From contig JBNLAH010000001.1 in the NCBI GenBank assembly GCA_050302075.1, positions 68,157 to 132,156 on the forward strand: 64,000 nt of DNA, written 5' to 3'. Below are positions 10,719 through 21,696 of the stretch, piece by piece; position 1 is the first letter of the stretch; every line of letters begins with the position of its first letter. The notes beneath the pieces are model-generated. The model did no database searches. It saw only the letters and a program-made list of their open reading frames with translations, and had not been told where the DNA came from. A program made the position numbers and the translations under genes. Source of the DNA: Parachlamydiales bacterium. GTDB taxonomy: Bacteria; Chlamydiota; Chlamydiia; Chlamydiales; SM23-39.

Positions 10719-12020
10719 TTATGAGCTAATTTGTCGAATTATATCCATGAATTTGTTCATAAACTCAGGTAAAGGGAAATCTACTTCAAGATAGAGATCT
10801 TTTAGTTCTAACTTGCTCATAGATTCAGGTAGGGTAGTAAACTGGTTTTTTTCAATCATTAAACATTTTAGATTTTTTAGACAGCCGATAGATGTGGGTA
10901 GAGTAGTAAGTTGGTTATTTGAAAGGCAGATGAATTCAAGGCTTTTTAGTTTGCCTATAGATTCTGGCAGAACAGTAATTTGGTTGTTATGTAAATAGAG
11001 TTCTTTTAGGTTTGTTAGCTTGCCTATAGACTCAGGCAAGAAGGTAAGCTCATTATCTCCAAGGTAGAGGCTTTGTAGGGCAGTAAATTCTTCAATACAT
11101 GGTAACACAACCTTTAAGCCTTTATTTCTAATATCTAGTTCTTTTACCTGATTTATTAGTGGATAGTTAGATCTTAGATTTTCAGCTAAAGCGTTATTGA
11201 TTTGATTGCCTTTTTCAACTTGATTCAGTTTTTTTTCATCCTTAATATTTTTAAGTATACCTTCTATTTTGCTAAAATCTTCGTATGGAAATTTGATTTT
11301 TAGTTCATTAATGAGCACTTCTGCAAAGTGAATTTGAGCTTTTAAAGTGAGGTTCTTTCTATTGCCTTCTACAAATGAGATAATACATTCAGGGTTTTTT
11401 ATTTTAAAATTGCTAACTTCAGCTTGAATTTGGGCTCTTATTGAGTTTAATTTTTCGCTGGAAGAAAAATATGGATTGTCCAAAATCGGCTTAAAGACTT
11501 TGCAGCATTCTTCTGATTTTTTAATTTTATTAAGCGGGCTTTCTCCCGGGGTGATTTTTTCCGAATTAATTCTTCTATTTATGAAAATAATTGAACCTAT
11601 TCCTAATCCTAGCGCTGAGAATGAGAGAAACTTATTTGATGAAATAAATTTAACAATTGAATCTGCTAGTAGTCCCTTTTGGTGTGAGGGTCTATTGCTA
11701 AGCGTTATTAAACTAGATATACCTACAACAATGAATGCTGTTGCAGGCTTATTTTTTGTAGTTATCTTCTTTATTAGAGTTTTTTTGTCGAAAAAAATAT
11801 TGAGAAGTCCTTTTTTAGACTCCATCTTTATTTTAAACAACTTAGAATATGCTCCTTGAGCTAACTTAAATGGTACTAGAAGCAAGTTAATAACAGCTAA
11901 GGCTACTTTTTTAATTATTGAATCTGGTTTTGATATTCTTATATTATAAAAACTTATAAAAGAACTTTTAAAGTTTTGAAAAATTGACTGGTAATTATTT
12001 TTTTTAAAATTAACTAACAT
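10719..12020 (-). CDS. LRR protein, family member A (shared hydrophobic leader, helical module, about 5 LRRs); putative effector
   Basis: 23-aa LRRs (LYLGDNELTFLPESIGKLTNLKE). Leader KKVALAVINLLLVPFKLAQ shared with four other ORFs in the window. Confidence 0.85.
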   Translation of the reverse strand: MLVNFKKNNYQSIFQNFKSSFISFYNIRISKPDSIIKKVALAVINLLLVPFKLAQGAYSKLFKIKMESKKGLLNIFFDKKTLIKKITTKNKPATAFIVVGISSLITLSNRPSHQKGLLADSIVKFISSNKFLSFSALGLGIGSIIFINRRINSEKITPGESPLNKIKKSEECCKVFKPILDNPYFSSSEKLNSIRAQIQAEVSNFKIKNPECIISFVEGNRKNLTLKAQIHFAEVLINELKIKFPYEDFSKIEGILKNIKDEKKLNQVEKGNQINNALAENLRSNYPLINQVKELDIRNKGLKVVLPCIEEFTALQSLYLGDNELTFLPESIGKLTNLKELYLHNNQITVLPESIGKLKSLEFICLSNNQLTTLPTSIGCLKNLKCLMIEKNQFTTLPESMSKLELKDLYLEVDFPLPEFMNKFMDIIRQISS

Positions 12021-12045
12021 TATTAATTATAAATAAATTTAAAAA

Positions 12046-12074
12046 ATAATATCAAATTTTAGAAAAAACAGCAA
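12046..12074 (-). promoter_or_regulatory. Candidate sigma66 promoter of member A
   Basis: TTGCTG-17 nt-TATTAT on the minus strand, 25 nt before the ATG. The AT-rich context lowers specificity. Confidence 0.35.
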
Positions 12075-12128
12075 TTGTTATTGAAACACTTCCAAGAGTT
12101 AATATAAGTGACAAATCTAACTTTACAA

Positions 12129-13739
12129 TTATTTTTTAGGCGCTATGTAGACTCCAACTATTTGTCTCGCATAAGGATTTTCGGATGACGGCTTTTTAAG
12201 TTCTAGTTTACCAATCTTACTCGGCAGTTGAAAGCGGTTTTTACCTAATTCGAGAGTTTTTAGCTTTGGTAGATTGCTAATAAACTTAGGTATAAAGGTT
12301 AGCTGATTGTTTGCAAGATCGAGAGTAGTTACTCCGTTTAGATTGCCAATAGACTCAGGTACAAAAGTAAGTTGAGTGGTACTCAGTGTTAGTTCTTGTA
12401 AGTTTGGTAGATTGCCAAGATACTCAGGGATGGAGATAAGGTTATTTTTTGCAAGGGAGAGTCGTTTTAAATTTTTAAATTTCCCGATAAATGGCAATAC
12501 CGCCTTCAAGCCTTTGTTTTCAAGGCTTAAAAAATCTATAGTAGATATAAGGTGTAATCCTTTAGAGGTTAGATCGTTTTCGAGGAAATTTTCCCAAACG
12601 TTATTAATTCTATTGGATTTTTCAACTAGGGTCAGTTCATCGTCATCTTTAATTGAATTGATTGAATTTTTTAATCCATCTATCGCTGTTTTTATACGGC
12701 CGTCATTAGAAAATCTAACTTGCAAGCTATCAACAAGAACATCTGAAAAATGGATTTGAGCTTCTGCGATATAAACTTTTCTAATTCCCTCTACAAAAGA
12801 GACAATACTATTAGTATTTTCTATACTTAAGTCTAATTCTAAGATTTCCATGTTTGAAAGATTTTCAATCAACGGATGTATTATTGGACTCGGTAATAGA
12901 CCTAGTCCTGTGTTTTTTATAGCATCCTCTATAGAAATATCAGAGTTTGAGACCTCAATAAAAGCTTTTCTAATTAGGTTGGCTTTATCAATTGGACTTA
13001 TATCTTTATTTATAATGGAATTAACTTCATTTGCAAGCTTTTTAAGGGAGGCACTTCCAGAATCAATTTGTAATTTAGTTAAAAGAATTCTCATAAAGAC
13101 GGTTTGAGCTTCTGCAATTCTAAAATTTTTTACTTCCGAATGAAGTTGAGCTTTTATTGAGTCTAACTTATCTGAATCTGATAAAGACTTAGAGTTTAAA
13201 ATTTGGCTCAAAACCTTGTTGCACTCTGATGAGTCTTTAATTTTATTAAGTTCAGGATTTCCCCGGCTACATTTTCCTTTTATGAAAATAATTGAACCTA
13301 TTCCTAATCCTAGTGCTGAGAGTGGAAGGAGCTTGTTTGAAGAAATAAATTTAACAATTGAATCAATTGAATCTTCTAGTAGTCCCTTTTGGTGTGAAGG
13401 CTTGTAGCCAAGTGCTATTAAACTAGATATACCTATACCAATTAATGCTGTTTTGATAATGGTAGGTTTATTTTTTGCAATTAACTCTTTTATTGAAAAT
13501 TTTTCGTCGAAAAAATTATTGAATGCCTGTGCCTTAGGATCGACCTCAACCTTAAATAACTTATAATAAGCACTTTGAGCTAACCTAAATGGTATCAAAA
13601 GTAAGTTTATAACAGCTAATGCTATCTTTTTAACTATTGAATCTTGATTAGAAGCGCCTGTCCTTGAGAGATTTATAGAAGAGCTCTTAGAGGATTGTAA
13701 AGTTGGCAAGTAACTATTTTTTTGAGAATTTATTAACAT
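12129..13739 (-). CDS. LRR protein, family member B (duplicated helical module)
   Basis: Shared leader, two IAEAQxxF modules, C-terminal LRRs (LSLAKNNLISIPEYLGNLPNLQE). Confidence 0.85.
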   Translation of the reverse strand: MLINSQKNSYLPTLQSSKSSSINLSRTGASNQDSIVKKIALAVINLLLIPFRLAQSAYYKLFKVEVDPKAQAFNNFFDEKFSIKELIAKNKPTIIKTALIGIGISSLIALGYKPSHQKGLLEDSIDSIVKFISSNKLLPLSALGLGIGSIIFIKGKCSRGNPELNKIKDSSECNKVLSQILNSKSLSDSDKLDSIKAQLHSEVKNFRIAEAQTVFMRILLTKLQIDSGSASLKKLANEVNSIINKDISPIDKANLIRKAFIEVSNSDISIEDAIKNTGLGLLPSPIIHPLIENLSNMEILELDLSIENTNSIVSFVEGIRKVYIAEAQIHFSDVLVDSLQVRFSNDGRIKTAIDGLKNSINSIKDDDELTLVEKSNRINNVWENFLENDLTSKGLHLISTIDFLSLENKGLKAVLPFIGKFKNLKRLSLAKNNLISIPEYLGNLPNLQELTLSTTQLTFVPESIGNLNGVTTLDLANNQLTFIPKFISNLPKLKTLELGKNRFQLPSKIGKLELKKPSSENPYARQIVGVYIAPKK

Positions 13740-20578: not shown

Positions 20579-20604
20579 ATAGTCTTATCTAGAAGAAGAT
20601 AATT

Positions 20605-20633
20605 ATTATAATTAATAAAAATATTAAATACAA
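20605..20633 (-). promoter_or_regulatory. Candidate sigma66 promoter of member D
   Basis: TTGTAT-17 nt-TATAAT on the minus strand, 26 nt before the ATG. Confidence 0.4.
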
Positions 20634-20796
20634 AAAACTTTTTTTATAACTATAAATTAATTTAAAATGGGTTTTTAATTAAAATTAAAATAAAGTGTTT
20701 TTTATATAAATACTTTAAGTGAGTGTTCTAGAGTTTCACTCAAGCTTGTAGTTGCTCTAGTTTTAAGTGAGTTAGCAATTCAATAACTAGATTAAT

Positions 20797-21696
20797 TTAA
20801 TCAGCTTTTTCAATTTTTGGTTTATTTTTGAGAATAGATTCTCTAATTTTCTCTACAAAATAGACAATACTATCAGCGCTTAGCATTCTAAAGTCTAAGT
20901 TTAAAATTTCAACGTTTGAAAATTTGCCAGTAGGCGACAATGTTTTTTTTAGGTTTGTATGACTTAAATCTAGCGATTCTATACGCTCTCTTAGAGAAGG
21001 GTCAAAATTGAGTGAGCTAATAATAATTTTATTAACTTGATAAGCCATTTCAGCTGTACTGATATTTGTATTAATTGAGTCTATTTTTCTAAGTTGTTGT
21101 TGTGCTGCTTCATTTGCTTTTGCAAAATGTAATATTTCACGTGCAAAAGTGAGTTGATTGTCTGCAATTTCAAATTCAAGAATTTCTTCTTGAAGCTGAG
21201 ATTTTATTGAATCTAGTTTCCCAGCAGGGGATAAATCTTCAGAGTTTAAAACTTGGGAAAAGACTTTACGACACTCTTCTGATTTTTTTATTTCATCAAT
21301 TGGCTCTTTTCTTAGTATCAATGATCTTATTCCATAAAGTGAGACTGCCCCTAAAGCTAACTTTGGTATATATGATAAGAACCCTATTTGAGAGCTTTGG
21401 TTTGAAGGTTTATACCCAAGGGCTATTAAACCAATAGCTCCTATTCCAATCAAAGCTGCTTTGAGGATCTTAGGTTGATTTAACTCAAGGCCTGTTTTAG
21501 GCTCTAATTTTATTTTAAACAACTTATAATAAGCTCCCTTTGCTAGCCTAAATGGTATCAAAAGCAAGTTGATTACAGCTAAGGCCACCTTTTTAATAAG
21601 AGAAGCTTGCTTAGAAGCTCTTGTCGCTGATCTACATGAGCTCTTTAAGGTTTGTAAAGCTGATTGATAATTGGTTTTTTGAGAATTTATTATCAT
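20797..21696 (-). CDS. Family member E: shared leader and helical module, no LRR array (short or truncated paralog)
   Basis: MIINSQKTNYQ...KKVALAVINLLLIPFRLAKGAYYKLFK. It ends just after SIVYFVEKIR, where paralogs continue into AQIHF and LRRs. Start 21696 set by alignment with paralogs. Confidence 0.75.
   Translation of the reverse strand: MIINSQKTNYQSALQTLKSSCRSATRASKQASLIKKVALAVINLLLIPFRLAKGAYYKLFKIKLEPKTGLELNQPKILKAALIGIGAIGLIALGYKPSNQSSQIGFLSYIPKLALGAVSLYGIRSLILRKEPIDEIKKSEECRKVFSQVLNSEDLSPAGKLDSIKSQLQEEILEFEIADNQLTFAREILHFAKANEAAQQQLRKIDSINTNISTAEMAYQVNKIIISSLNFDPSLRERIESLDLSHTNLKKTLSPTGKFSNVEILNLDFRMLSADSIVYFVEKIRESILKNKPKIEKAD

Follow-up and report, generated by a model that had tools for sequence, protein, structure and literature searches.

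What is a shared N-terminal leader of about 150 amino acids for, when the proteins behind it differ from gene to gene? Five minus-strand genes of a Parachlamydiales bacterium (assembly GCA_050302075.1) raise this question. They lie in a stretch of 64,000 nucleotides, here called the window, which is C1:68157-132156 of a 1.84-Mb assembly that is 96% complete (genome G000; labels C1 to C77 denote its contigs). A first-pass annotation of the window had read them as two clusters of a family in which a conserved membrane-anchoring leader delivers variable leucine-rich repeats (LRRs) to a host or inclusion membrane. From sequence comparison and structure modelling, we consider it probable that the genes encode Inc-like, type III-secreted, membrane-tethered effectors that were built by shuffling of the leader.

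A leader family of 41 genes

The five open reading frames (ORFs) were found as annotated: ORF 1 (10719..12020, 433 amino acids), ORF 2 (12129..13739, 536 amino acids) and ORF 3 (13773..14984, 403 amino acids, GTG start) form the first cluster, ORF 4 (18650..20578, 642 amino acids) and ORF 5 (20797..21696, 299 amino acids) the second. ORFs 2-5 are 39-52% identical to ORF 1, and the two clusters sit in different sub-clades of the leader tree. All five contain the described leader helix KK-AL-INLLL-PF-LA--AY-KLF and three hydrophobic segments (H1, H2 and H3), and their starts are acid-poor, with 0, 0, 0, 1 and 0 acidic residues at positions 2-30 of ORFs 1-5.

A profile hidden Markov model (HMM) of the five leaders retrieved further members from the same genome, down to E 1e-55, and thus carried the family well beyond the window. 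After iteration the profile converged on 41 ORFs at E < 1e-12 among 7152 six-frame ORFs, three of them matching in the H2-H3 half only. Because members reach E 1e-55 and reversed ORFs no better than 0.065, we do not regard the family as a chance assembly. Its genes make up about 2.5% of the genome and are scattered across 19 loci. An LRR clan accounts for 15 of the 41 members, namely ten with arrays in the assembly, ORF 5 and four that are cut by contig ends. The other 26 fall outside this clan. They include an array of 15 tandem leader genes (C6:143203-159529) with mostly charged helical tails and no LRR, and in the rest the tail is of low complexity, short, or long and helical, or the leader heads an Rce1-like protease domain, which passes the Pfam cut-off, or a DUF4347-like domain, which does not (E 0.007). 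The idea of an LRR-carrying cassette hence holds in that the leader does head LRR cargos; it is not specific to LRRs, and the same cargo also exists without a leader. Profiles of the LRR group and of the C6 array, built separately, align at a probability of 97.5, and the C6 profile alone recovers all five window genes (E 2e-10 to 1e-3), so the two main groups are homologous irrespective of the iteration. A gene outside the training set, C5:198171-199571, has a divergent leader (E 6e-6) in front of a herpes-tegument-type deubiquitinase-like domain (E 8e-5, below the Pfam cut-off), for which a search of the PDB gave no match. Membrane-anchored enzymes of deubiquitinase type are reported from Simkania (PMC13720258).

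Two further observations concern the margins of the family. C6:190348-191934 has a borderline leader (E 0.01-0.03) and a tail that looks kinase-like by eye, with no match in Pfam. LRR-only fragments, several with one of the helical modules of the clan (module B), occur on contigs C16, C18, C20, C21, C23, C34, C37, C38, C44 and C77 and at the ends of C1, C4, C5 and C11, and the LRR clan is therefore larger than the assembly shows.

Leader exchange and leaderless paralogues

The leader had been described as a conserved cassette before faster-changing cargo, and this was borne out across genomes: H1 is 71% identical against 38% for the cargo, and higher in all 13 cross-genome pairs, with identities of 66% around H2 and 51% (median) around H3. 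Within the genome the difference is seen at synonymous sites. Between ORF 2 and ORF 3, the synonymous distance is 0.16-0.23 in the leader and 1.3-1.7 in the cargo; between two genes on C4 it is 0.06-0.37 and 1.1-2.3, respectively. The leader value was the lower one in most of the 11 paralogue pairs computed, the high values being near saturation. ORF 2 itself is a mosaic that resembles ORF 3 up to about nucleotide 305 and ORF 1 beyond (0 of 5000 permutations), which places the approximate junction at 13420..13450. The switch also lies inside one public contig (Fisher 3e-9) that spans 13284-13574 without differences, from a run that may be the source sample and whose contigs break in the H1 regions. 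Leaders are thus exchanged between paralogues by recombination.

Two paralogues, C4:170416-171861 and C6:72927-74790, carry the cargo of putative F-box remnant, helical modules and LRRs and begin with another N-terminus that is not hydrophobic; an assembly gap splits the pieces of one of them. On C46, a fragment runs from leader H2-H3 through a stretch homologous to this leaderless N-terminus (0 of 2000 shuffles; the stretch was first spotted by eye) into an F-box remnant. In the simplest history, though unrooted, a soluble effector acquired the leader at its N-terminus, and the cargo of the window genes would derive from a soluble F-box/helical/LRR protein of this kind.

Leader anatomy and predicted topology

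The leader consists of a Ser/Asn-rich start, the conserved H1 and a weakly hydrophobic pair, H2/H3. It covers residues 1-147 of ORF 1 (11580..12020; H1 35-51, H2 92-108, H3 131-147), 1-153 of ORF 2 (13281..13739; 35-51, 94-110, 137-153), 1-151 of ORF 3 (14532..14984, placed by its hydrophobic segments), 1-149 of ORF 4 (20132..20578; 30-46, 89-105, 133-149) and 1-120 of ORF 5 (21337..21696; 33-49, 77-93, 104-120). Relative to 1525 other, crudely called genes, residues 2-30 hold more Ser, Asn and Gln and fewer acidic residues; serine makes up 17% against 8%, in a comparison where paralogues do not count as independent. An enrichment in serine has been reported for type III secretion signals (PMC3617162). 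None of 39 leaders has a signal peptide, a lipobox or an early hydrophobic stretch, for which two window controls were positive, and sctV, sctJ and sctR matches over curated cut-offs show that the genome has type III secretion genes. The first 30 residues would act as the secretion signal.

H1 begins near residue 34 and closes with a near-invariant Leu-x-Pro that is followed by an amphipathic stretch. A linker of about 39 residues leads to H2, and a loop of about 21 separates H2 from H3. Two to three hydrophobic segments confined to residues 20-190 were found in 37/39 members and in 56/1525 other genes, and these three segments persist though sequence identity drops to about 20%. The H2-H3 loop is shorter than 30 residues in 29 of the 31 members having three clear segments. 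Lys and Arg account for a fraction of 0.23 in the linker, 0.25 after H3 and 0.13 in the loop, and basicity in the linker (28/31 members) and behind H3 (26/31) is about double that of the loop. With both basic flanks on one side, this fits a hairpin that leaves the cargo on the linker side, and H1 need not cross. Likewise, Chlamydia trachomatis CT006 is reported to have an extra hydrophobic segment with basic flanks before its bilobed pair, and this segment was shown not to cross the membrane (PMC8863265). Rather than a third span, H1 seems to be a helix that binds a chaperone and lies on the membrane surface. In the arrangement we propose, H2-loop-H3 would form a hairpin in the inclusion membrane, and the basic linker and the cargo would face the host cytosol.

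Several features of the pair weigh against an Inc-type hairpin. H2 and H3 are weak, with median KD17 hydropathy values of 1.77 and 1.85 compared with 2.09 in polytopic proteins. An Inc-type pair is present in 28, 16 and 6 of 39 members at KD17 thresholds of 1.5, 1.7 and 1.9, counts that rest on hydropathy windows rather than a trained transmembrane predictor. Known Inc loops are reported to have 3-22 residues (mean 8) and no K, R, D or E, a typical trait rather than a search criterion in that report (PMC3048545). The leader loop has a median of 21 residues by window limits and is charged, as its Lys/Arg content shows, and thus lacks the short, charge-free character. Moreover, the loop of ORF 3 equals its linker in basicity, and in ORF 4 acidic residues outnumber basic ones after H3.

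Alternatively, the proteins would be type III effectors whose leader addresses them to a host organelle (the endoplasmic reticulum, lipid droplets or the outer membrane of mitochondria or peroxisomes) or anchors them monotopically at a membrane surface, in place of an inclusion hairpin; it would then resemble the LRT domain of BteA or the membrane-localisation domain of CT694. The segments are short, weak and flanked by basic residues, and the stretch after the conserved Pro has an amphipathic moment of 0.47 against a background median of 0.26. Four of 46 homologues from outside the genome (P0068, P0070, P0072 and P0074) are short and retain H1 and an upstream motif without H2/H3, so H1 can travel alone. 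Residues 1-88 of CT006 go to lipid droplets via a comparable segment (PMC8863265), and a 130-residue domain of BteA is reported to bind its chaperone and to target membranes (PMC2788067). We nevertheless regard an organelle address as unlikely, since the pairing of H2 and H3 around a less basic loop fits a hairpin, and the tandem array of helical, charged cargos matches the reported Inc/TMH organisation (PMC3323650). A Peroxin-3 match to the leader was not found either, in a search whose control was silent too.

As the annotation had noted, the leader corresponds to no named domain: Pfam (5 + 29 proteins) and NCBIfam (36 leaders) gave none above noise. No conserved prokaryotic domain was thus found over its hydrophobic part, in keeping with the chlamydia-specificity of Incs. 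The Pfam domain of IncA was without a match in the 5 + 29 proteins scanned, and DUF648 (PF04890) without one at E 1 in the genome. Sequences in the PDB gave no usable match, and the best ESM Atlas value, 0.75, was not usable. The structure model of the leader was weak (predicted local distance difference test, pLDDT, 64.5; predicted template modelling score, pTM, 0.30) and lacked a compact fold; with it, Foldseek found 0 matches and VIA-align reached a best Z of 4.6, on single long helices. Blank fold and sequence searches of this kind do not show a new fold.

A modelled contact of H1 with a CesT-family chaperone

The genome has two CesT-family genes, one of which is conserved in 60 of 61 genomes searched. 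From its position beside a glycogen-debranching-type gene, we take this conserved CesT-family gene to be the orthologue of Slc1. Two leader genes lie between the glycogen-debranching-type gene and this chaperone gene, directly upstream of the chaperone. Such adjacency has a chance probability of about 4% and was noticed after the fact; among 26 relatives, no convincing leader was found at the chaperone locus. A complex model of the chaperone dimer with residues 1-70 of ORF 2 scored 0.62, compared with 0.22 for the best of three controls, and passed a mark that 116 of 157 solved and 2 of 215 mismatched pairs reach. At least 70% of contacts recur between runs, and the partner has a pLDDT of 49-51. 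In the model, residues 35-47 of ORF 2 (13599..13637), a part of H1 picked out by the complex model and by column conservation, lie on the chaperone. The closest contacts are made by residues 38-43, among the best-conserved columns (K in 33/36, I/V in 35/36 and V in 28/36 leaders). H1 is hence modelled to dock on the genome's own CesT-family chaperone.

Against this reading, the complex model comprises one chaperone and one leader only, and any hydrophobic helix might pass. The pass may also reflect likeness to solved class I chaperone complexes (of the relatives ShcA and SicP). Furthermore, the Slc1 clients named in PMC3576375 are Tarp, CT694 and CT695, none of them an Inc. The Slc1-binding region of CT694 takes in its membrane-localisation domain according to the same report (PMC3576375), and by analogy H1 may play the role of this region. 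The chaperone would then cover H1 during export, and afterwards H1 would rest on the cytosolic membrane face without crossing.

Helical modules, putative F-box remnant and LRRs

The annotation had placed helical modules and a variable number of 23-residue LRRs behind all five leaders. This is correct for ORFs 1-4, which have both module A and module B and contain 4, 4, 3 and 6 LRR units with Pfam LRR over cut-off; ORF 5 has module A alone and no array. ORF 1 carries modules A and B and an LRR array at residues 315-394 (10839..11078), ORF 2 module A, two B-type modules and an array at residues 424-503 (12231..12470), both arrays being placed by Pfam LRR and unit spacing. ORF 3 has modules A and B and three units, one of them irregular. 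ORF 4 has two A modules, module B and an array at residues 487-613 (18740..19120) that includes a recent 69-bp tandem repeat of 3.5 copies with 87% identity (18866-19107). In ORF 5, one degenerate unit was all that was found of an array (Pfam LRR_4 16.8 bits, cut-off 27), and the gene stops where its relatives start the last helical module; ORF 5 would thus be a truncated copy. Its bases are identical in a contig of the public run that may be the source sample. A 146-deep contig had hinted at collapsed copies of its leader, an idea that we dropped because depth is not copy number and the best other copies are 86-87% identical.

In most members of the LRR clan, a motif after H3 aligns with the first half of a profile made from 29 chlamydial F-boxes (hhalign probability 79, 25 columns, score 24); the score did not exceed 13 in windows that avoid the motif, nor 11 in 60 shuffles. 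Among the five window genes this putative remnant is present in ORF 4 only, as a degenerate half F-box at residues 191-237 (19868..20008) below the Pfam cut-off, and absent from ORFs 1, 2, 3 and 5. An F-box origin is weakened by the match covering 25 columns only, and by its probability falling to 45-48 in unselected windows over the same place (below 5 elsewhere). In addition, no member of the leader family reaches the Pfam F-box cut-off (best E 0.059, in an outside member; 0 of 8 own segments), and a pairwise-HMM test was negative, with family members at E 12 or worse, so that the profile-profile test alone is positive. Two proteins outside the leader family may be mentioned here. C4:27272-28609 encodes the sole F-box over the Pfam cut-off in the genome, and a 550-residue orphan in the window (62099-63751, plus strand) matches the F-box weakly at its N-terminus, with E 0.02 in the genome search and nothing in hmmscan.

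The 23-residue units resemble in fold most closely the LRR proteins of Leptospira and SHOC2; beyond the LRRs, a single-sequence model of ORF 4 cannot be relied on. The proposed variability of the LRR faces is supported by adjacent repeats, which we compared for nonsynonymous (pN) and synonymous (pS) differences: pN is equal to or larger than pS at concave positions in the three genes with enough repeats and smaller than pS at other positions, on few sites and by simple comparison rather than a formal test. The concave face may hence be under relaxed or diversifying selection, and it might bind host proteins at the vacuole surface. ORFs 1-3, lacking the F-box remnant, would act as tethers or adaptors and not as adaptors of a ubiquitin ligase; in ORF 4, binding of Skp1 may have been kept or lost.

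In another reading the proteins would span the inner membrane of the bacterium itself two to three times and direct LRR, helical or protease domains to its cytoplasm or periplasm, for envelope work or phage defence. In hydrophobicity they overlap with ordinary membrane proteins, their LRRs belong to a common bacterial type whose nearest solved folds come from Leptospira, and Rce1-like and DUF4347-like domains occur in ordinary bacteria. We find this reading very unlikely, as it accounts neither for the serine-rich, acid-poor N-termini and the chaperone model nor for the fast, lineage-specific birth and death of the genes. An F-box remnant would moreover be useless without host Skp1, which was not found in 400 chlamydial genomes by a search whose control was silent. 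That the leader is a secretion and chaperone-binding module of soluble helical fold, with the effectors free in the host cytosol, is highly improbable given the lack of a compact fold in the leader model and the retention of three hydrophobic segments in divergent members, even if H1 is both best conserved and the part modelled on the chaperone, H3 is poorly conserved and leaderless paralogues have the same cargo. We hence retain Inc-like, membrane-tethered effectors as the reading of the family.

Distribution and genomic setting

The family had been proposed to be lineage-specific, and this stands: searching 400 other chlamydial genomes with the leader profile, scored on at most nine candidates per genome, gave convincing leaders in G024 only, a genome of the same family with two tandem leader-like genes. 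The profile matched eight other genomes, and loci were examined in six; besides G024, the matches in G383, G231, G360, G245 and G313 turned out to be partial or unrelated, and three matches with internal stops were left out of this inspection. A full HMMER scan with the leader found 72 proteins, 26 from the own genome and 46 from elsewhere, and 44 of the latter have their best match in the leader family. In the leader tree, many of the outside proteins have a single counterpart in the C6 array, and most of the array genes have such a partner, which argues that the array genes are maintained. P0063 (996 residues) has the leader, a DUF4347-like domain, helical modules and LRRs in one chain, and so unites two cargo types that the own genome keeps in separate genes. 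P0071 and P0075 (2 of 46) are repeat proteins with basic-then-hydrophobic repeats, which match H2 only and have no counterpart in the own genome; their likeness to H2 is probably convergent. For the cargo, the linker profile of the LRR clan matched 0 of 399 other chlamydial genomes, and a word-index search for the modules found two proteins only, both of the window organism or leader-identical to it. ESM Atlas matches of the modules were all below 0.9, and a pattern scan of genome contigs with the LRR-clan alignment gave 67 pattern matches, of which 0 were confirmed.

A marker gene of the window (23569-24063) finds its nearest matches, at 69%, in uncultured chlamydiae. In the two closest relatives, genes that we take to be npt1, lepA and gnd are contiguous, with 274-280 bp between npt1 and lepA and, in one of the two, an amidase after gnd. 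Both clusters are therefore insertions on the lineage of the window. A tRNA-Arg(CCT) gene (15064..15139, minus strand) lies 80 bp directly upstream of the first cluster and is a possible insertion landmark. A second small paralogue family, unrelated to the leader, is found at C1:241498-250583 as three related hydrophobic proteins of 160-166 residues. An [FeFe]-hydrogenase was looked for in the genome and not found, hence we see no link to the anaerobic Anoxychlamydiales.

Relation to known effector families

Expansions of Incs and of F-box/LRR proteins, as well as shared N-terminal targeting domains, are already known (PMC3290821, PMC3323650, PMC4209131, PMC2788067). The family resembles Inc proteins and CT006 in the missing signal peptide, the N-terminal hydrophobic pair and the helical cargos. 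In contrast, Incs are reported to share little sequence (PMC3048545, PMC8863265), whereas here one alignable leader stands on 41 genes, with a weaker pair, a longer and more charged loop, and LRR and F-box cargos. The TMH/Inc clusters and the CP1054 family of Chlamydiaceae likewise form tandem paralogues with N-terminal transmembrane pairs and helical C-termini (PMC3323650, PMC3290821); they share lineage-specific expansion and fast divergence with the family described here, and the 15-gene C6 array resembles them. Differences from these clusters are the absence of IncA or DUF648 matches, about five times the members of the 8-gene tmh locus, the spread over many loci, and unrelated enzyme-like and LRR cargos.

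The NEX1a family of Neochlamydia, with a demonstrated type III secretion signal, is described as expanded in tandem arrays under birth and death, and as joining an F-box-like motif to variable LRRs at the C-terminus through a linker that is conserved and unnamed (PMC4209131). C-terminal LRR arrays of this type are present in ORFs 1-4 and absent from ORF 5. Unlike in NEX1a, the F-box is here halved or lost and follows on a membrane leader. The linker profile matched none of the 399 other chlamydial genomes scored, a set that may or may not include Neochlamydia. The main text on NEX1a does not contain the word 'transmembrane', and a major role of recombination was not found there (PMC4209131).

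As modules, leaders of this kind have parallels outside the Chlamydiae. BteA has a lipid-raft-targeting domain that, like the leader, is an N-terminal module of 130-150 residues on unrelated cargos and combines chaperone binding or export with membrane targeting (PMC2788067). The BteA module and that of the Salmonella effectors differ from the leader in that no match to it in sequence or fold was found for either; they are not described as hairpins and come in far fewer copies per genome. In Salmonella, SspH, SseI, SseJ and SifA reportedly share an N-terminal domain on unrelated cargos that serves chaperone binding or export and membrane targeting. Terminal reassortment, said to have been described by Stavrinides in 2006, joins an existing N-terminus of a type III effector to a new cargo. 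Here, in contrast, the moved piece seems to bring a membrane anchor along, and a single genome suffices to measure its exchange between paralogues. A search in main texts of the open-access literature turned up no description of a single alignable Inc-like leader that is shuffled across so many unrelated cargos.

Incs have been recognised by hydropathy only, because they share little sequence, and their export and insertion have hence been hard to dissect. With 41 genes that have an alignable leader with conserved positions, versions of the same cargo with and without it, and a specific predicted chaperone, chaperone recognition, topology and the gain of an anchor become testable. We may tentatively speculate that secretion signal, Slc1-like chaperone site and hairpin together form a portable cassette that makes soluble effectors (F-box/LRR, deubiquitinase-like, protease-like) vacuole-tethered, with proteins of the ORF 4 type as membrane-anchored Skp1–cullin–F-box (SCF) adaptors. 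This is possible rather than likely; if true, it would be the first alignable sequence code for the chaperoning and insertion of a chlamydial membrane effector. As for the organism, the family is an argument for an intravacuolar life of this uncultured lineage in its host.

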